Below are positions 17,643-61,637 of a DNA stretch of 64,000 nt, piece by piece; position 1 is the stretch's first letter, and each line of letters opens with the position of its first letter. A program made the translations under genes and the position numbers. A model generated the notes under the pieces. That model did not search any database. It was not told where the DNA came from and saw nothing but the letters and a program-made list of their open reading frames with translations. This stretch comes from Escherichia virus TH55: the sequence record MT446421.1; one strand, given 5' to 3'.

Positions 17643-17948
17643 TTAGATTTTGTTTTCCTGCACACCATAGTAAAGTTCATCAGACACAATATCCAGGATG
17701 CGGCGAACATATTCATCATGGTATTGGCAGTCAAAATCAAATGCAACAGTAGTTTCCGCTTCACGAGTGAATTTAACTTGCACATTCAGGTGATTAACAA
17801 CGTTAGTTAATTTATCAGTAAAGAACTCTTTTGCTACCGCCTGTTGGACTTGTACTTTGAACTTGGTGTTGCGAATCATATTTTCAGCAGATGCGAAATT
17901 ACCAGTTTTATCAAAGTCAACAAGCGCCAGGTTGATGATGAATTTCAT
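17643..17948 (-). CDS. hypothetical protein
   Basis: 101-aa ORF behind family-2 promoter cassette. Confidence 0.45.
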   Translation of the reverse strand: MKFIINLALVDFDKTGNFASAENMIRNTKFKVQVQQAVAKEFFTDKLTNVVNHLNVQVKFTREAETTVAFDFDCQYHDEYVRRILDIVSDELYYGVQENKI

Positions 17949-18010
17949 TTTATTCTCCAGTGTTTTATTTGGTAACTCAGTATGGAATCATTATGCCTTA
18001 AAGCAGGGGG
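17949..18010 (-). promoter_or_regulatory. early promoter/5' leader cassette (family 2)
   Basis: coding strand CATAAT gattccatactgagttaccaaataaaacactggag ATG. Confidence 0.45.
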
Positions 18011-18034
18011 CTTGTATACCCCCCCCTTTTTGAA

Positions 18035-18478
18035 TTAAATTTCAAATTCTTTGCGGAAGTTGGAAGCATAAGACTGAACTGATGCTTTGTTGAACCCAAA
18101 CTCACGCACAATCATATCAATAACAGCTCTGCGAGCAGCACCATTAGACATATTAACAGTTTTGAACATATCATAGCATAAATCTTTGTTGCTCATACCG
18201 GAGCGTTTAGGTGCCTTACGTTCAGCTTTTGGTTCAGCTTTAGGAGTAGGTTTAACTTCTGGTTTAACCTGTCCATCATTCAGACCTTTAAAAATTTTAC
18301 CTGCCAGAGTTGCCAGTTTAGCAGCTTCGCCACGAGTGATACCAAATACTGCCGGGTTAAATGAAATACCTTCAGCTGTCAGACGTTTGAAGAACATACG
18401 GGCTGCGGATTGTGCTTCAGCTTCAGAAGAGTTGTTTAATGCCAGTTTAACGTACTTAACCAGTTTTGAAGTTTTCAT
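18035..18478 (-). CDS. hypothetical protein (paralog of 18562..18987)
   Basis: 147 aa from MKTSKL; C-terminal NGAARRAVIDMIV...VQSYASNFRK shared with neighbour. Confidence 0.45.
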   Translation of the reverse strand: MKTSKLVKYVKLALNNSSEAEAQSAARMFFKRLTAEGISFNPAVFGITRGEAAKLATLAGKIFKGLNDGQVKPEVKPTPKAEPKAERKAPKRSGMSNKDLCYDMFKTVNMSNGAARRAVIDMIVREFGFNKASVQSYASNFRKEFEI

Positions 18479-18540
18479 TTTATTATCCCGTTTGTTTATT
18501 TGGTAACTCAGTATGGGATAATTATACATTATCCCACCTG
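18479..18540 (-). promoter_or_regulatory. early promoter/hairpin cassette (family 2)
   Basis: coding strand GTTTTAC...gggata atg TATAAT tatccc atactgagttaccaaataaa...ATG. Confidence 0.5.
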
Positions 18541-18561
18541 GAAGTAAAACACTTTTCTCAA

Positions 18562-18987
18562 TTATTTTTGAGCTTTGCGGAAGTTGGAAGCATATGACTG
18601 AACAACAGTCTTTTTGATATCATGGGTGTTAACCAGAACATCAATCAGAGCGCGACGAGCTGCACCATCTGCCATATCAATTTCTGCAAATGCCTGGAAG
18701 CAAATGTCACGAGCATTACCAGATTTTGACTGGATTTTTTCTTCTTTAACTTCTTCAATTGGGAATTCAATCATTTCAGCTTGGATTAATTCAATGATAG
18801 ATTCTTTTGACTGTTTGGTGTTTACCTTCAGTTCAGAATTAAGGGACTTGGCGATGGCAACAATCTGGGTTGAAGTCAGATGAATAAGTGCATCTTCACG
18901 AATGCAGATTTCACATACTTCATCGGCAACCATTTTGTTGGTGATGCGGGTAACAGAGAATGCAGAGGTCAGGGTCAGGAAGTTCAT
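18562..18987 (-). CDS. hypothetical protein (paralog of 18035..18478)
   Basis: 141 aa from MNFLTL; C-terminal DGAARRALIDVLV...VQSYASNFRK. Confidence 0.45.
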   Translation of the reverse strand: MNFLTLTSAFSVTRITNKMVADEVCEICIREDALIHLTSTQIVAIAKSLNSELKVNTKQSKESIIELIQAEMIEFPIEEVKEEKIQSKSGNARDICFQAFAEIDMADGAARRALIDVLVNTHDIKKTVVQSYASNFRKAQK

Positions 18988-19060
18988 TTTATTTCTCCAA
19001 AGTTTTGTTTGATTCAGTGTGTAACTCAGTATGGAATCATTATGCATCCAGTCAATTCGG
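18988..19060 (-). promoter_or_regulatory. early promoter/leader cassette (family 2)
   Basis: coding strand GTGTAC...CATAAT gattccatactgagttacacactg...ggag ATG. Confidence 0.45.
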
Positions 19061-19108
19061 ATGTACACTACTTTTTGAAGAAAATTTCAAATTTATTCGG
19101 GGTATAAA

Positions 19109-28225: not shown

Positions 28226-28237
28226 TATTTATAAATA
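28226..28237. promoter_or_regulatory. palindromic divergent late promoter TATTTATAAATA
   Basis: TATAAATA readable on both strands; serves gene 53 rightwards and the HNH/gene 4 side leftwards. Confidence 0.55.
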
Positions 28238-28277
28238 GAGTATATCATACTTAAACCATATTGTAAATGGAGGCTTT

Positions 28278-54807: not shown

Positions 54808-55626
54808 ATGCTTAAAGAACAACTCATTTCTGAAGCTCAGAATATCGATGCTTCCGTTGCTCTCGATAGTATTTTCGAATCAGTTAATTTGTCCCCGGAA
54901 GCGAAAGCTACCTTCGGCACTGTATTCGAAGCTACCGTCAAGCAACACGCCATCAAACTGGCAGAATCTCACATTCACGCCATCGCTGAAAAAGCTGAAG
55001 AAGAAGTCGAAAAGAATAAAGAAGAAGCCGACGAAAAAGCAGAGAAAAAACTGAAAGAATCTGCAGCTAAATTCCTGGACCACGTTGCTAAAGAATGGCT
55101 CGCTGAAAATAAACTGGCTGTCGACCGTGGCATTAAAGCTGACCTGTTCGAATCCATGTTCACCGGCATGAAAGAACTGTTCGTTGAGCACAACGTTGTT
55201 GTTCCAGAAGAATCTGTCGATGTTGTTGCAGAAATGCAGGAAGAACTGGCTGAACAGAAAGAAGAAACCGCTAATCTGTTCGAAGAAGTTGCTAAGCGTG
55301 ATGCTTATATCAATTATGTCCAACGTGAAGTTGCGTTGACTGAAGCGACTAAAGACCTGACTGAATCTCAAAAAGAAAAAGTTGGTTCTCTGGTAGAAGG
55401 CATGGAATACTCTGATGCATTCGGTACCAAAATTGGCGCTATCGTTGAAATGGTTAAAGGTCAGGTAGAACCCACCGACAAACCAATCACCGAAGCCGCT
55501 ATAAATAAAAATGTAGACGATGCTGCGGCACTGAATTACATTTCAGAAGCAGTTGAAGAAAAAGGCGCCAAGCCTACCCTGTCCTTCGCGGACTTGTCTG
55601 CTCTCGCAGCATCACGAATTTCTTAA
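54808..55626 (+). CDS. 22: prohead core scaffold protein gp22
   Basis: 272 aa acidic coiled-coil. Confidence 0.88.
   Translation: MLKEQLISEAQNIDASVALDSIFESVNLSPEAKATFGTVFEATVKQHAIKLAESHIHAIAEKAEEEVEKNKEEADEKAEKKLKESAAKFLDHVAKEWLAENKLAVDRGIKADLFESMFTGMKELFVEHNVVVPEESVDVVAEMQEELAEQKEETANLFEEVAKRDAYINYVQREVALTEATKDLTESQKEKVGSLVEGMEYSDAFGTKIGAIVEMVKGQVEPTDKPITEAAINKNVDDAAALNYISEAVEEKGAKPTLSFADLSALAASRIS
55499..55506 (+). promoter_or_regulatory. possible internal late promoter TATAAATA for gene 23
   Basis: exact TATAAATA inside 3' end of gene 22, about 140 nt before gp23 ATG. Confidence 0.35.
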
Positions 55627-55647
55627 TTTAATAAGGTTATACAACAC

Positions 55648-57207
55648 ATGAAAAAGAATGCATTAGTTCAAAAATGGTCCGCTCTGCTGGAAAACGAAGC
55701 TCTTCCGGAAATCGTTGGTGCTTCTAAACAAGCTATCATCGCTAAAATCTTTGAAAACCAGGAACAAGATATTCTGACCGCTCCTGAATACCGTGACGAA
55801 AAAATCTCCGAAGCATTTGGTTCTTTCCTGACCGAAGCTGAAATCGGTGGTGACCATGGTTATGATGCTACCAATATCGCTGCTGGCCAGACCTCTGGTG
55901 CAGTAACTCAGATTGGGCCGGCAGTTATGGGTATGGTTCGTCGTGCTATCCCACATCTGATTGCGTTTGATATTTGTGGCGTACAGCCTCTGAACAACCC
56001 GACTGGCCAGGTATTTGCCCTGCGTGCAGTTTACGGTAAAGACCCTGTAGCTGCTGGTGCTAAAGAAGCTTTCCACCCGATGTATGCTCCAAATGCTATG
56101 TTCTCTGGTCAGGGCGCTGCTGAGGCTTTCGAAGCTCTGGCTGCAAGCAAAGTTCTTACCGTTGGTAAAATTTATTCTCACTTCTTCGAAGCAACCGGTG
56201 CCGCGCACTTCCAGGCTGTTGAAGCTGTAACCGTTGATGCTGCTGCTACTGATGCCGCTAAACTTGACGCCGAAGTTACCAAACTGCTCGAAGCTGGTAA
56301 GCTGGCCGAAATCGCTGAAGGTATGGCTACCTCTATCGCCGAATTGCAGGAAGGCTTCAACGGTTCTACTGATAACCCGTGGAACGAAATGGGCTTCCGT
56401 ATCGATAAACAAGTTATCGAAGCTAAATCCCGTCAGCTGAAAGCAAGTTACTCCATCGAACTGGCACAGGACCTGCGCGCTGTTCATGGTATGGATGCTG
56501 ATGCCGAATTGAGTGGTATTCTGGCTACCGAAATTATGCTGGAAATCAACCGCGAAGTTATCGATTGGATTAACTACTCCGCACAGGTTGGTAAATCTGG
56601 TATGACCAACACCGTTGGCGCTAAAGCTGGTGTGTTTGACTTCCAGGACCCGATTGATATCCGTGGCGCTCGTTGGGCTGGTGAAAGCTTCAAAGCTTTA
56701 CTGTTCCAGATTGATAAAGAAGCCGCTGAAATCGCTCGTCAGACTGGCCGTGGTGCAGGTAACTTCATCATCGCTTCCCGTAACGTAGTTAACGTACTGG
56801 CTGCAGTTGATACCTCCGTATCTTATGCTGCTCAGGGTCTGGGTAAAGGTTTCAACGTTGACACCACTAAAGCTGTGTTCGCTGGTGTTCTGGGTGGCAA
56901 ATACCGTGTATACATCGACCAGTATGCTCGTGCAGACTATTTCACCATCGGTTACAAAGGCGCTAACGAAATGGATGCTGGTATCTACTACGCACCATAT
57001 GTTGCACTGACCCCGCTGCGTGGCTCTGACCCGAAAAACTTCCAGCCGGTTATGGGCTTCAAAACCCGTTACGGTATCGGTATTAACCCGTTCGCTGACC
57101 CGGTAGCTCAGGCTCCGACCAAGCGCATTCAGAACGGCATGCCAGACATCGTTAACAGCCTCGGCTTGAACGGTTACTTCCGCCGCGTATATGTTAAAGG
57201 AATTTAA
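55648..57207 (+). CDS. 23: major capsid protein gp23
   Basis: 519 aa, gp23-like. Confidence 0.93.
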   Translation: MKKNALVQKWSALLENEALPEIVGASKQAIIAKIFENQEQDILTAPEYRDEKISEAFGSFLTEAEIGGDHGYDATNIAAGQTSGAVTQIGPAVMGMVRRAIPHLIAFDICGVQPLNNPTGQVFALRAVYGKDPVAAGAKEAFHPMYAPNAMFSGQGAAEAFEALAASKVLTVGKIYSHFFEATGAAHFQAVEAVTVDAAATDAAKLDAEVTKLLEAGKLAEIAEGMATSIAELQEGFNGSTDNPWNEMGFRIDKQVIEAKSRQLKASYSIELAQDLRAVHGMDADAELSGILATEIMLEINREVIDWINYSAQVGKSGMTNTVGAKAGVFDFQDPIDIRGARWAGESFKALLFQIDKEAAEIARQTGRGAGNFIIASRNVVNVLAAVDTSVSYAAQGLGKGFNVDTTKAVFAGVLGGKYRVYIDQYARADYFTIGYKGANEMDAGIYYAPYVALTPLRGSDPKNFQPVMGFKTRYGIGINPFADPVAQAPTKRIQNGMPDIVNSLGLNGYFRRVYVKGI

Positions 57208-57230
57208 TCCTAGATTAAGTTAAATAAAAA

Positions 57231-57258
57231 GGGACCCTTGAGGTCCCTTTCTTGTTTT
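57231..57258 (+). terminator. bidirectional rho-independent terminator after gene 23
   Basis: gggacc cttga ggtccc with flanking A5 and T-rich runs. Confidence 0.65.
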
Positions 57259-57539
57259 CATACCATACCATTTAAATGAACTTCTACCCGGCGCTTGATG
57301 AGGTCTCTGAAGTTAACATTGTTTTCTTGAAGTTTCAACCAGTTACCATTTTTATCTTTAGTGTGAGTAGAATAATTACCATTCCACCAGAAATCAGTGT
57401 CATATGCTAAGTTTTCATATTTTTTAACTAGTTTGTTCAGAGCATTACCATTAACACCATTTGGGTATTTGTTGACCAATGTAATAACTTCAATTTCCAA
57501 TTTTTTAAAGGTGTTCAGAAGGAAAGTTGCTTTGTTCAT
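57258..57539 (-). CDS. hypothetical protein on opposite strand between genes 23 and 24
   Basis: 93-aa ORF with its own family-2 early promoter cassette. Confidence 0.5.
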   Translation of the reverse strand: MNKATFLLNTFKKLEIEVITLVNKYPNGVNGNALNKLVKKYENLAYDTDFWWNGNYSTHTKDKNGNWLKLQENNVNFRDLIKRRVEVHLNGMV

Positions 57540-57611
57540 TTTTAAACTCCAAGGTTTTGTTTGTTAACTCAGTATGGAATCATTATGTCTTATCTTAATC
57601 TGGTTGTAAAC
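57540..57611 (-). promoter_or_regulatory. early promoter/leader cassette (family 2)
   Basis: coding strand GTTTAC...CATAAT gattccatactgagttaacaaacaaaaccttggag ATG. Confidence 0.5.
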
Positions 57612-57617
57612 AACTTT

Positions 57618-57625
57618 TATAAATA
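57618..57625 (+). promoter_or_regulatory. late promoter TATAAATA upstream of gene 24
   Basis: exact TATAAATA, abuts -35 of divergent early promoter. Confidence 0.55.
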
Positions 57626-57651
57626 AAGTATATCACAAAAGGAAAGCGCAA

Positions 57652-58932
57652 ATGGCAAAGATTAACAAATTACTGCGCGAGTCAACTATTACTACCAGCA
57701 ACTCCTTGGGCCGCCCGAATCTTGTTGCTTTGACCCGCGCTACGACTAAATTGATTTACCGCGATATCATCGCTGAACAACGTACTAACCAACCTGTTGC
57801 TGCACTGTATGGTGTTAAATATCTTACTCCTGATAATGAATTCAGTTTCCAGACGGGCGCTACTTATGGAGGCGAAGTCGGTTCTAAAGACCGCACAACT
57901 ATTCCAGAATTAACTACAGCCACTCAGCCTGTGGCTAAAGGCGAATATATAAAATACCAAAATATCGTTTACAAAGCTCTGGTTGATAATCCATTTGCAT
58001 CGACCACAGAAACAGTGTTATCTGATGTTCTGCAAGAAGGTCTTATTGCATCGACTATTCGCCTTGTTCCTGATGCCGCACACACTGAAAAATTCGAAGC
58101 CGGTGATGTTGAAATTAGCAATGCTGTATTCCAGGTTAACAAATGGAATGCTCCGGTTAAAACACGTAAATTGAAAACTGCATTAACTGTTGAACTTGCC
58201 CAGGATATGGAAGCAAATGGTTTTAATGCTCCTGCTTTCTTAGAAGACCTGCTTGCCACTATTATGGCAGATGAAATTAACAAAGATGTTCTTCAGTCTC
58301 TTATTACCGTTTCCAAGCGTTATAAAGTAACTGGCGTTTCTGACAATGGCACCATCGATTTAACATACGATGCAGCCCCAGAAGGTGCACGTAAACTGTA
58401 CGAACTGGTTTGCGAAATGAACTCCGAAATTCAGAAAACTACATCTTATTCCGGTACCTTTGTTGTTGCCTCTAGCCGTGTTGCTGCTATGTTGGCCGGT
58501 TCTGGTTGGTTGAAACACAGACCAGAAGACGAACAGTGGCTCCCCGAAACAGCGTACGGTTATTTGATTAATGGCCTCCCTGTATTCTGTGATGTTAACA
58601 GTCCATTGGATTATGTAACTGTTGGTGTTAAAGAAAATTACGGCGGAAACGAAGTCGTAGGCGCAATTTTCTATGCTCCTTATACCGAAGGCCTGGACTT
58701 GGATGATGAAGAGCACGTTGGTGCGTTTAAGGTCATTGTGGACCCAGACAGCTTGCAGCCATCTATCTCTCTGATGGTTCGTTACGCACTTTCAGCTAAC
58801 CCGTACACCGTTGCTAAAGACGATAAAGAAGCTCGTATTATCGATGCAACCAATATGGATTTAATGGCCGGTCAGAGCAATATGTCTTATCTGCTCGGTG
58901 TTAAACTTCCGCCAATCATTTATGAGGCGTAA
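57652..58932 (+). CDS. 24: head vertex protein gp24 (copy 1)
   Basis: 426 aa; gp23-like fold protein after gene 23. Confidence 0.88.
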   Translation: MAKINKLLRESTITTSNSLGRPNLVALTRATTKLIYRDIIAEQRTNQPVAALYGVKYLTPDNEFSFQTGATYGGEVGSKDRTTIPELTTATQPVAKGEYIKYQNIVYKALVDNPFASTTETVLSDVLQEGLIASTIRLVPDAAHTEKFEAGDVEISNAVFQVNKWNAPVKTRKLKTALTVELAQDMEANGFNAPAFLEDLLATIMADEINKDVLQSLITVSKRYKVTGVSDNGTIDLTYDAAPEGARKLYELVCEMNSEIQKTTSYSGTFVVASSRVAAMLAGSGWLKHRPEDEQWLPETAYGYLINGLPVFCDVNSPLDYVTVGVKENYGGNEVVGAIFYAPYTEGLDLDDEEHVGAFKVIVDPDSLQPSISLMVRYALSANPYTVAKDDKEARIIDATNMDLMAGQSNMSYLLGVKLPPIIYEA

Positions 58933-60216
58933 ATGCAAAAGATTAATGCACTAATTCACGAATCAACATTAACGGCGGCCAACCAGGTCGCCCGTCCTAA
59001 TTTGCTTTCTTATACTCAAGCCACGAATAAACGAATTTTTAAAGCGCTCGTGGCCGAACAGAAAACTACCCAGCCTGTTGCAGCGCTGTATGGTGTTCGT
59101 GTTCTGAACCCAGATGATAAAATGACTTATCTCGGTGGAGCAACATTTGCAGGTCAGATTGGTATGTTCGAGCGTAAGAATATTCCAGAATTTACAAACA
59201 AAGACGAAGCTTATGCAGTCGGCGATATGTTCCAGTTTGAAAGTGTTGTGTTCAAAGTTTTGGAAGCATCCCCATTCGCCGGTACACTCGAAACTGATTT
59301 AGGTGAAGTTATTTCTGAAGCCATTGCTGCTGGGCATATAAGAATGATGTCAGATGCTGCTTTCACTGATAAATTTGAAAAGGGGCATCCTGAAATTGCT
59401 GAAGCTGGTTTTCGTATCGATAAATGGCAGACTGAAGTTAAATCCAGAAAGTTGAAAACTTCTTTAACTGTCGAGCTTGCCCAGGACCTGGAAGCAAACG
59501 GTTTTGATGCAACAGACTTCATCGATAATATTCTCGGCATTCAAATGGCAGAGGAAATTAATAAGGATGTATTGCAATCCCTTATTACTGTTAGTTCCCG
59601 CTTCAAGGTGCAAGGTGTTTCGGAAAAAGGTGTATTGAATCTTACTGACCCGAAATATGATAACGCGCAGGACCGCGCGCGAACCCTGTATTATTATATG
59701 TGTGAAATGAATTCTGCAGTTCAACGTCAGACTTCGTTTGCTGGTACATATGCGGTTGCTTCTTCCCGTTGTGCAGCTATTTTAGCCGCTTCTGGCTGGG
59801 TTGAGAAAAAGGAAGACCAGGATGAATTGGCCTATGGTGTTCTGAAGAACGGTTTGCCTCTTTACGCTGATATGAATAGTCCATGTGATTATGTTATTGT
59901 TGGTGTAAATGCAGATATGGGTGAAGGTCAGACGGTCGCATCTTTGTATTATGCGCCTTATACGGAAGGGCTTAGCGAAGTTGATGATGAGGGTGATACC
60001 TCGGTTGGGGAATTCAAGGTTATTGTTGACCCTGAAAGCTTACAGCCTACGGTTGCACTGTTAGCTCGTTATGCTTTGACTGCGAACCCTTACACCGTTG
60101 CTAAAGATGATAAAGAAGCTCGCCTTATTGATGGAGCTGATATGGATAAGATGGCTAACCAAAGTCAATTGAGTTCTTATCTTGGTGTTAAACTTCCACC
60201 GCTGGAAAAAGAATAA
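58933..60216 (+). CDS. 24: head vertex protein gp24 paralog (copy 2)
   Basis: 427 aa; colinear similarity to copy 1 (MQKINALIHESTLTAANQVARPNL vs MAKINKLLRESTITTSNSLGRPNL; both end PYTVAKDDKEAR.ID). Confidence 0.8.
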   Translation: MQKINALIHESTLTAANQVARPNLLSYTQATNKRIFKALVAEQKTTQPVAALYGVRVLNPDDKMTYLGGATFAGQIGMFERKNIPEFTNKDEAYAVGDMFQFESVVFKVLEASPFAGTLETDLGEVISEAIAAGHIRMMSDAAFTDKFEKGHPEIAEAGFRIDKWQTEVKSRKLKTSLTVELAQDLEANGFDATDFIDNILGIQMAEEINKDVLQSLITVSSRFKVQGVSEKGVLNLTDPKYDNAQDRARTLYYYMCEMNSAVQRQTSFAGTYAVASSRCAAILAASGWVEKKEDQDELAYGVLKNGLPLYADMNSPCDYVIVGVNADMGEGQTVASLYYAPYTEGLSEVDDEGDTSVGEFKVIVDPESLQPTVALLARYALTANPYTVAKDDKEARLIDGADMDKMANQSQLSSYLGVKLPPLEKE

Positions 60217-60237
60217 GGGCCTTGCGGCCCTTTTTTT
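60217..60237 (+). terminator. rho-independent terminator after gene 24 copy 2
   Basis: gggcc ttgc ggccc plus T7. Confidence 0.7.
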
Positions 60238-61243
60238 ATTCACTAATTAATGCAATCCAAACATGTCTTAATGTTTCTCTTACATTTGCGATAAGTTGCT
60301 TTTTAACTTCAACAGGATTTTCTGTTTGGGTCAATTCAAGGCCTTCACGACCCGCTTCTTCCAGGATATCCTGGACAGTCAAACCCATTACCTTCCCAAA
60401 ATCCTTAGGTGTTACTTCCCCAATCTTACTGATAACATTATTGATACGGTTGACAGTCACATAATCAGTAAACTTCCATAAAACATCCAGGTCTTCCTGG
60501 GACAACACAACAGCAGCCTTAATAGGCTTATCAGACTTTTTCTTTTCGCTGAATTTAGAGTTCTTACATTTAATCGCTACACGCTCGCCGTTAGGTAACC
60601 ATGCAGGAACATCAGGTTTTAATACAAATCCTTCAGCAGTGAATACTTTACCTTCCACCTTTGCATCAAAATCAGTGGTATTTGCTGTAGTCAATCCTGC
60701 GTTATCCACTGTAAAATTGTAATCAGGGACCACAGAATCCAGGTCATTAGGGAGCTTAATCAAGTCTTCAAAGCTACCTGTGGCCAGGCGTGGGGCAACT
60801 TTAAACTTATGAATAATACAAAAGGCTTCCATAAGTGTGTCAGTCAGGACGGATTCAGAGCCATCTTCCTTAGTAACGCGGATATCAAACACATAGAAAT
60901 CTTTATCGCCGTAATCCACATTCTTCTGAATACCTGTACCAGCAAACTCGCCATAAATCTGGTAAGCCTGGTAATTAATATCCTGTAAAAGTTTCTGCAC
61001 AGATTTAATAGAATCTGCGTAGTTCTTTAATACAATTTCATAACCATAGAAATCTTCTGCAGGTAGAATAGGTCCAGTGCGTTTCGCGCATGTCACATTG
61101 TCTTGTTCAATGATTAAACTAAAGTTGGTACCATGAATCTTTTCACGAGCTACCCATTCACCGCTGGTGAAGCCTTGCAGGCGAATCTTTTCAATGAACT
61201 TGTTATTATAGTGATTTTCAAGGCTGTTGTATTTCTTAAACAT
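60236..61243 (-). CDS. rnlB: RNA ligase 2
   Basis: 335 aa; [19 protein letters not shown]...[14 protein letters not shown] (ligase lysine motif), ...[22 protein letters not shown] matches T4 Rnl2. Confidence 0.9.
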
Positions 61244-61373
61244 AATCTCTCACTTTTGATGTTATAAATATCATTATAAATTAGACCCACTATACTTTCT
61301 TTCTCTGAAAGGAATTAATAGTTGCAAAGGGTCTAGAACCATTATACCGCATTTTTATTTGAAGCAAAAAGGG

Positions 61374-61637
61374 TCAGAATTTTACATACAGCATTGGCTT
61401 GGATTCTTGCCAATCATAATTCCAGGTAAAAGATGTAAATTTTTCTGCTCGCAGAAATTCAGATATCTTTGCACGGTTTCCTTCTTCATACTCTTTTTCA
61501 GAAACTGCCATATTAACAGCATCTTTGCCGTTCTCGGCGGCGGCAATAGCCACTTTGCGAAATATAGAAATAAAGTCATTTGCAACTTTATCTTGTGACT
61601 CTTTGGCTATTTGGCGTAGTTCTTCTGCGAATGTCAT
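61374..61637 (-). CDS. hypothetical protein
   Basis: 87-aa ORF. Confidence 0.4.
   Translation of the reverse strand: MTFAEELRQIAKESQDKVANDFISIFRKVAIAAAENGKDAVNMAVSEKEYEEGNRAKISEFLRAEKFTSFTWNYDWQESKPMLYVKF

Follow-up and report, generated by a model that had tools for sequence, protein, structure and literature searches.

Phage T4 carries a free-standing GIY-YIG homing endonuclease gene, segD, on the antisense strand between its genes 23 and 24, in the exact slot and orientation of the small ORF described here. A 2010 review could identify no segD-specific promoter in T4 and expected transcript levels to be very low (PMC2988022). In 2022, a time-resolved omics study detected the protein and classed segD as "early RNA, middle protein" (PMC9697503, supplementary files 4 and 6). 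A second described system is the promoter-early stem-loop (PeSL) cassettes of T4-type phages (Arbiol 2010, PMC2839356; Comeau 2014, PMC4122927), which have been linked to insertions and deletions between close relatives (PMC4122927).

The closest counterparts of our ORF are RB69ORF188c, JS98 ORF173c and VR7ORF190c, which belong to the same family and have the same position, antisense orientation, promoter block and shared terminator. These three ORFs were unmentioned in the literature we searched, a scope that stopped short of the VR7 genome paper and of Sokolov et al. 2018 on SegD; the sole match to "ORF188c" concerned unrelated ORFs of phages 44RR and RB49.

Here we analyze a stretch of 64,000 nucleotides from Escherichia virus TH55 (MT446421.1), referred to below as the window. 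In our view, the antisense ORF is likely to form an accessory gene cassette, complete in itself, that sits in a polymorphic slot of a VR7-like T-even phage, with late genes 23 and 24 on either side.

Gene Order and Borders of the Slot

Over the 1.1-kb stretch around the ORF that we compared, the window is 100% identical to Escherichia phages UPEC07 and TH22 and 92-99% identical to other Gaprivervirus members (VR7, SP18, VR20 and others). By this sequence comparison, the phage is a Gaprivervirus, a VR7-like T-even coliphage. The local gene order is 68, 21, 22, 23, the minus-strand ORF, 24(1), 24(2) and rnlB (minus strand), with the following features in and around the slot:

55648-57207, plus strand: the slot's left-hand border, gene 23 for the major capsid protein (Pfam Gp23, E 2.9e-122)
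57226-57252, both strands: bidirectional intrinsic terminator common to gene 23 (plus) and the ORF (minus), from a terminator scan and folding
57258-57539, minus strand: 93-aa accessory gene of the VR7ORF190c / JS98 ORF173c / RB69ORF188c family (ATG ORF, phrog_6003)
57547-57550, minus strand: Shine-Dalgarno sequence GGAG, 7 nt 5' of the ATG, read from the sequence
57652-58932, plus strand: the slot's right-hand border, gene 24(1) for the capsid vertex protein (Pfam Gp23 family, E 9.1e-98)

The gene 23 product is labelled major capsid protein in the UPEC07 and VR7 records, and gene 24(1), with its ATG at 57652, is 24(1) of the VR7 annotation. The original prediction, made from the window's sequence, had placed a 93-aa minus-strand ORF between genes 23 and 24 and had it end at the gene 23 terminator hairpin. 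The coordinates of the ORF (57258-57539) were borne out, and so was its end: the stop codon lies 5 nt from the hairpin, which scores as a terminator on both strands. The hairpin folds at -15.9 kcal/mol on the plus strand and -17.0 kcal/mol on the minus strand (z -3.25 and -2.76, respectively), and a hairpin occupies the corresponding position in VR7, JS10 and PhAPEC2. Rfam returned sub-threshold matches only, driven by this hairpin, and a tRNA search found none.

On the other side of the slot, gene 24 is present as two tandem capsid vertex protein paralogs (57652-58932 and 58933-60216) that are 55% identical, the second beginning at the base right after the stop codon of the first. The pair is named 24(1)/24(2) in VR7 and 24a/24b in JS10; the gene is single-copy in T4, in the Mosigvirus PhAPEC2 and in one metagenomic contig (L014). 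A hairpin at 60215-60232, between gene 24(2) and the convergent rnlB, is terminator-like on both strands, a layout that mirrors the one at 57226-57252.

Comparative Evidence for a Conserved Gene

The ORF protein matches phrog_6003 with an E value of 2.5e-46, its residues 1-90 falling on profile positions 1-90 of 90, and it is 100% identical to UPEC07 protein QUL77563.1. Both the ORF and its position are already in public annotation as a hypothetical protein, the label used in the UPEC07, VR7, JS10 and PhAPEC2 records. The VR7 record names it VR7ORF190c, "similar to JS98 ORF173c", and the PhAPEC2 record gives "similar to RB69ORF188c".

A tblastn search found homologues in 237 phage records at 33-100% identity. 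The identities fell into three tiers, at 90-100% (31 records), about 60% and about 37%, which, judged from the loci we examined, appear to correspond to Gaprivervirus, Dhakavirus and Mosigvirus, respectively. One record is Acinetobacter phage ABPH49, at 33% identity. An alignment of 12 family sequences, in which the JS10, UP19 and PhAPEC2 copies align with the window protein, contains ten invariant columns, and dN/dS was 0.07-0.23 among pairs unsaturated at synonymous sites. In every T-even examined that carries this family, the gene lies antisense between genes 23 and 24, and T-even-like metagenomic contigs have it in the identical slot. Nothing essential sets the Gaprivervirus copies apart from the RB69ORF188c / JS98 ORF173c family; they have a C-terminus 4-5 residues longer than that of other family members, and a "family-2" −10/leader region that is described below. 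These comparisons show the 93-aa ORF to be a genuine gene on which purifying selection acts.

An open frame arisen by chance in A/T-rich spacer DNA would be one way to explain short products that match no family of known function, in a family where a glycosyl hydrolase label (see below) shows annotation pipelines guessing. Such a frame would not be expected in 237 records at this range of identities with invariant residues and dN/dS well below 1, nor with a confident structure prediction and a consistent ribosome-binding site and promoter. We give this explanation practically no chance; the comparative data refute it.

In phage mogra (MN850579; L024 3388-3656), the annotation divides the ORF188c-family gene into two overlapping parts, 38 and 51 aa long. 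The split presumably reflects either a frameshift that made a pseudogene or an error in sequencing.

Protein Model and Search for Relatives

We modeled the ORF protein with AlphaFold from an eight-sequence alignment (pLDDT 87.5, pTM 0.72). Helices were placed at residues 3-24, 31-48 and 77-91 and a hairpin at residues 56-69; the predicted protein is small, soluble and basic, with three helices and a beta-hairpin.

Pfam yielded nothing significant for the window protein or any of the 12 family members (best DUF4859, E 0.0029, in 2 members), and an NCBIfam search was likewise without a significant match. No PADLOC-DB defence or anti-defence profile matched it at E <= 10 (0 families). The best hit in a PDB sequence profile search (E 0.036) was an unrelated protein, and the family has no solved structural relative. 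An exhaustive HMMER search of 1.84 billion representatives returned 5 matches, two of which we discounted: P0006 (1633 aa) is a low-complexity repeat match, and P0007 looks like a chimeric contig. A profile search of 5.8 billion proteins gave 23 clusters, all unnamed or hypothetical; the JGI name "curcumin reductase" on one of them is implausible for a 90-aa protein. As far as these sequence searches can detect, the protein has no relative of known function.

One member of the family does carry a functional label. The same 93-aa ORF in phage EAWsc9 (PQ341120; L019 659-940) is called "glycosyl hydrolase family 25", for which we found no support: none of the 12 members has a Pfam match to the GH25 domain at E <= 1, the model is helical, and the protein has only 93 aa. 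The label is probably an annotation error.

ABPH49, a phage listed under Vequintavirinae, and two large metagenomic contigs hold distant homologues, each within a run of small co-oriented ORFs without family assignment. No dedicated sigma-70 promoter was found directly upstream of these non-T-even copies. From its timing, size and distribution, our guess is that the protein is a dispensable early host-interaction factor, acting in host takeover or counter-defence and binding a macromolecule.

A Polymorphic Slot between Genes 23 and 24

The interval between genes 23 and 24 was found in four states: empty, with the ORF, with segD, or with the ORF and segD together. A T4 slot query matched 922 records, 53 of which cover most of the segD-containing span; the remaining matches span about 470 bp as against 1201. 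Most T4-like genomes lack segD, whereas the ORF is close to fixation in Gaprivervirus, Dhakavirus and Mosigvirus. Empty slots were seen in Tequatrovirus SA20RB, in Jiaodavirus Mineola and in the Gaprivervirus TH57, and in all three no more than about 15 nt separate the late box of gene 24 from the gene 23 terminator ahead of it. The box is TATAAATA in SA20RB and Mineola; in TH57 it reads AATAAATA. Both GTTTAC and the antisense gene are absent from the empty slots of SA20RB, Mineola and TH57. In TH15, a SegD orthologue 72% identical to T4 SegD replaces the ORF, and in the Dhakavirus UP19 the ORF is followed 3 nt on by a segD-like gene.

Two details of TH57 deserve mention in their own right. 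Its late box (L009 1810-1890) reads as if a deletion junction lay inside the box, and its terminator matches that of the segD-bearing TH15.

The gene can be regarded as accessory and dispensable because it is absent in TH57 and TH15 and split in mogra. The original prediction had called it "inserted", which fits the empty slots of segD-less Tequatrovirus, Jiaodavirus and TH57. The low G+C content of the ORF region (28-35%, versus 45-55% in gene 23) agrees with this wording as well. Comparison of the 23-24 region among relatives was also informative about the promoter: where the ORF is absent without replacement (TH57), the −35 is absent too, and where it has been swapped for segD (TH15), the promoter block is retained. 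The promoter therefore belongs to whichever antisense cargo is present and not to the ORF alone.

The coincidence of slot, orientation and promoter block with those of segD, together with the apparent single transcription unit of UP19, might suggest that the ORF is not an independent gene. It could be a remnant of the segD homing element, such as a degenerate nuclease fragment, or a helper or protective partner of it. The protein itself speaks against such an origin, since it has no similarity to T4 SegD (BLASTP E 3.1) and no Pfam match to the GIY-YIG domain or to any other nuclease family, and its predicted fold is helical and not nuclease-like. The distribution is no more favourable: the ORF is found in 237 records, segD stands beside it only in UP19 among the loci examined, and no called nuclease gene adjoins the distant non-T-even homologues. 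We hold a segD-derived origin or role to be highly improbable and continue to treat the ORF as a gene in its own right.

A Probable Early Promoter and a Late Promoter Stand Back to Back

Four elements lie between the ORF and gene 24:

57565-57586, minus strand: −10/leader module ATAATGATTCCATACTGAGTTA, a 22-mer (four copies against 0 expected)
57582-57610, minus strand: sigma-70-type early promoter TTTACA-N17-CATAAT (promoter scan and nine-locus conservation)
57605-57625, both strands: block TGTAAACAACTTTTATAAATA, in which the antisense −35 and the late box of gene 24 stand back to back (unique in the window)
57618-57625, plus strand: TATAAATA, the late box of gene 24, with 26 nt between it and the start codon

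On the minus strand, the −35 TTTACA occupies 57610-57605 and the −10 CATAAT 57587-57582. This is the best sigma-70-type match in 55000-61500, with a score of 10/12. Taken alone, the scan is weak evidence because the 5 matches observed in that interval do not exceed the shuffle mean of 12.6; they are in fact fewer. The −35 and the N17 spacer fit the T-even early promoter consensus TTTACW-N17-TAYWAT (PMC4122927), and the −10 differs from it at the first base. Upstream of the ORF there is neither a TGCTT MotA box nor a minus-strand TATAAATA.

The late box is better supported statistically, with 20 copies of TATAAATA in the window versus 5.06 +/- 2.22 in shuffles, a four-fold enrichment. The record of phage SA20RB labels the same box as a late promoter of T4 type. 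The copy before gene 24 fits this promoter type and would depend on gp55/gp33/gp45.

We aligned nine occupied loci from the antisense start codon to the gene 24 start codon: the window, VR7, TH15 with segD, JS10, UP19, two metagenomic contigs, PhAPEC2, and T4 with segD. The block TGTAAA(C/T)A..TT(T)ATAAATA is near-invariant across these divergent loci, and within it TGTAAA and ATAAATA are invariant. All nine keep GTAAAC-N5/6-TATAAATA, and all have a −10 hexamer (CATAAT, TACTAT, TATTAT or TATAAT) at equal distance. The 21-bp block is common to Gaprivervirus, Dhakavirus, Mosigvirus and T4; the spacer and leader, unlike the block, are variable. With the ORF in 237 records and the block near-invariant across nine loci, these features exceed what chance would give. 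The original prediction had described "interlocked divergent promoters", with the −35 (plus-strand gtaaac, 57606-57611) abutting the late box. Both elements are at those positions with a 6-nt gap between them, and the arrangement recurs in nine out of nine occupied loci. As far as the aligned sequences show it, the back-to-back pair is a property of every occupied slot and is gone when the slot is empty.

The T4 segD locus is the closest parallel. Besides slot and orientation, it has a homologous block, TGTAAATAAC-TTTATAAATA, and it too ends at the gene 23 terminator. Our scan called a segD promoter there, TTTACA-N17-TATTAT with an extended −10 TG (AF158101; L008 2754-2782, minus strand), and on TH15 it called TTTACA-N17-TATAAT ahead of segD. 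The cargoes are unrelated, a 223-aa nuclease in T4 versus a 93-aa helical protein in the window. In sequence terms, the architecture of the ORF locus is parallel to that of the known segD locus. Our reading of the T4 sequence disagrees with the review (PMC2988022), and the later omics data favour expression of segD.

The ORF had also been predicted to be an early gene. Its sigma-70-type promoter, the missing MotA box and the homologous T4 segD promoter with its early RNA are all consistent with that assignment, so the window promoter is probably an early promoter by homology with T4. The suggested early timing of the ORF itself draws on the same promoter sequence and on the homology with segD.

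Middle or late expression would be the alternative, for example by read-through from minus-strand promoters upstream of rnlB. Read-through was proposed for T4 segD in the review (PMC2988022), the SegD protein accumulates at middle times (PMC9697503), and the −10 CATAAT is imperfect. Against this, polymerase would have to traverse both gene 24 paralogs in antisense as well as the terminator at 60215-60232. The segD RNA of T4 is classed early, the sequence upstream of the ORF has no MotA box or minus-strand late box, and the same promoter module is common to about a dozen other places per genome before small minus-strand ORFs. We regard middle or late expression as very unlikely and retain the early promoter as the preferred reading.

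A different possibility is that the element acts as DNA or RNA, the antisense promoter or its transcript regulating genes 23 and 24 through occlusion of the late promoter or pairing with gene 23 read-through RNA. Such read-through RNA would be complementary to the ORF mRNA, the polymerase footprints at a −35 just 6 nt from TATAAATA should overlap, and the promoter block is more conserved than its flanks whatever the cargo. But the purifying selection on the ORF coding sequence acts at the protein level, and the predicted transcript is bounded by a strong terminator and overlaps neither capsid coding region. Moreover, capsid gene expression does not need the antisense promoter, because the slot is empty in most T-evens, with terminator and late box only, and TH57 has no −35. 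We therefore give little credence to a purely regulatory element, and we return to a protein-coding cassette with its own early promoter.

A second early/late promoter knot was seen at 28226-28267. It consists of the palindrome TATTTATAAATA, which places late boxes on both strands (+28230 and -28233), and a minus-strand early-type promoter, TTTACA-N17-TATACT, just upstream of the palindrome. Its geometry is unlike that at 57605-57625.

A Dispersed −10/Leader Module

The original prediction had assigned the ORF a "family-2" early cassette. This was upheld by the 22-mer ATAATGATTCCATACTGAGTTA, which occurs in four minus-strand copies in the window, at 17973, 18504, 19022 and 57565, versus 0.00 expected. 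It covers the −10 and about 15 bases at the start of the transcript; at the ORF, transcription is predicted to start at about A57575. Each copy is followed by a Shine-Dalgarno sequence, a short spacer and a small ORF that opens with ATG. The GG of that sequence aligns across the four copies, of which three read GGAG and the one at 18548 GGGA. Further upstream, the sister cassettes have "...AAAAAG(T)nGT(T/G)TAC" at the same place, aligned with "TATTTATAAAAGTTGTTTAC" at the ORF promoter.

A 37-nt query over the module matched each Gaprivervirus genome at 10-14 places and Morganella phage MP1 at five (one of them annotated "promoter"), with a single place in each of the two Dhakavirus records listed. 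At the 23-24 locus, JS10, PhAPEC2 and T4 have a different, shorter leader, and the Gaprivervirus lineage would therefore have replaced the −10/leader part of its promoter, with the module adding about 13 nt. RNA structure does not account for leader conservation because the four leaders fold worse than shuffles (z +1.0 to +1.8), and we rejected the leader as a structured RNA element.

The module resembles PeSLs in several respects. It is dispersed and multicopy, it supplies an early promoter, Shine-Dalgarno sequence and start codon before small ORFs, and its copies stand at points of insertion, deletion or replacement between close relatives. The ORF copy has GGAG-N7-ATG at the module's 3' end, and its −35 fits TTTACW. 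Recombination may have taken place at this module. There are also differences. No stem-loop lies upstream of the −35 at the ORF, where the gene 24 late box stands instead and only a 4-bp CTTT/AAAG pairing can form; the −10 is CATAAT as against TAYWAT; and the copy is inside the conserved head module, whereas PeSLs have been described mostly in hyperplastic regions. Because the upstream stem-loop is missing, we do not class the ORF copy as a PeSL.

Inverted repeats do lie upstream of the module's three other copies, at 17.9-19.1 kb, and in this respect those copies are closer to PeSLs. They are clustered on the minus strand at 17930-19100, each before a small ORF, and the short inverted repeats preceding them are TTGAAATTTAATTCAA, CTCAAAAATAATTGAG and TTGAAATTTTCTTCAA. 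At the 18018 copy, a G8...C5 hairpin also overlaps the −35. A C-terminal motif, ...GAARRA.ID....SYASNFRK, is common to two of the ORFs behind these modules. The cluster looks like a true PeSL array.

Proposed Use of the Two Promoters

If the ORF is an accessory cassette with its own early promoter, unmodified host RNA polymerase would transcribe it in the first minutes of infection, producing an RNA that starts near 57575 and stops at the hairpin. Early promoters of T4 have an A/T-rich upstream tract at about -43 to -50. The A/T-rich late box, whose complement TATTTATA falls at that distance, may double as this tract for the antisense promoter. Changing TATAAATA to TACGAATA would be expected to lower gp24 and, should the box double in this way, early ORF mRNA as well.

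Because the −35 is only 6 nt from TATAAATA, the polymerase footprints of the two promoters must overlap. The promoters would then be unable to hold polymerase simultaneously, and their use would be separated in time, with sigma-70 transcription early and gp55/gp33/gp45 at TATAAATA late. In T4, AsiA blocks −35 recognition some minutes into infection, before late transcription by gp55/gp33/gp45. In the Gaprivervirus lineage, the −10/leader part would have been swapped for the dispersed PeSL-like promoter module.

A more ambitious version of this scheme treats the 21-bp block and the gene 23 terminator as a landing pad for unrelated antisense cargoes (an ORF188c-family gene, segD, or both), the 93-aa protein then acting early in counter-defence or host takeover, with its gene kept in genetic linkage to that of the major capsid protein. 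We think this version unlikely. Our preferred reading remains the accessory cassette in a polymorphic slot.

Three points were not found described in the literature we searched: the sharing of one promoter block by the ORF188c family and segD, the candidate early promoter of T4 segD, and the four occupancy states of the slot. These are minor additions. Their practical value is modest, and the understanding of these phages is unchanged. The family phrog_6003, nearly fixed in three genera of coliphages used for therapy and with no relative of known function or solved structure found, is a reasonable knockout candidate for host-range or counter-defence screens. T4 segD gains a plausible promoter, as TTTACA-N17-TATTAT matches the early segD RNA seen in the omics data. 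For the T-even family, the head-gene module, usually taken as rigid, holds a small slot with at least four occupancy states, and all of the occupied ones would be driven from a single conserved early/late promoter block.
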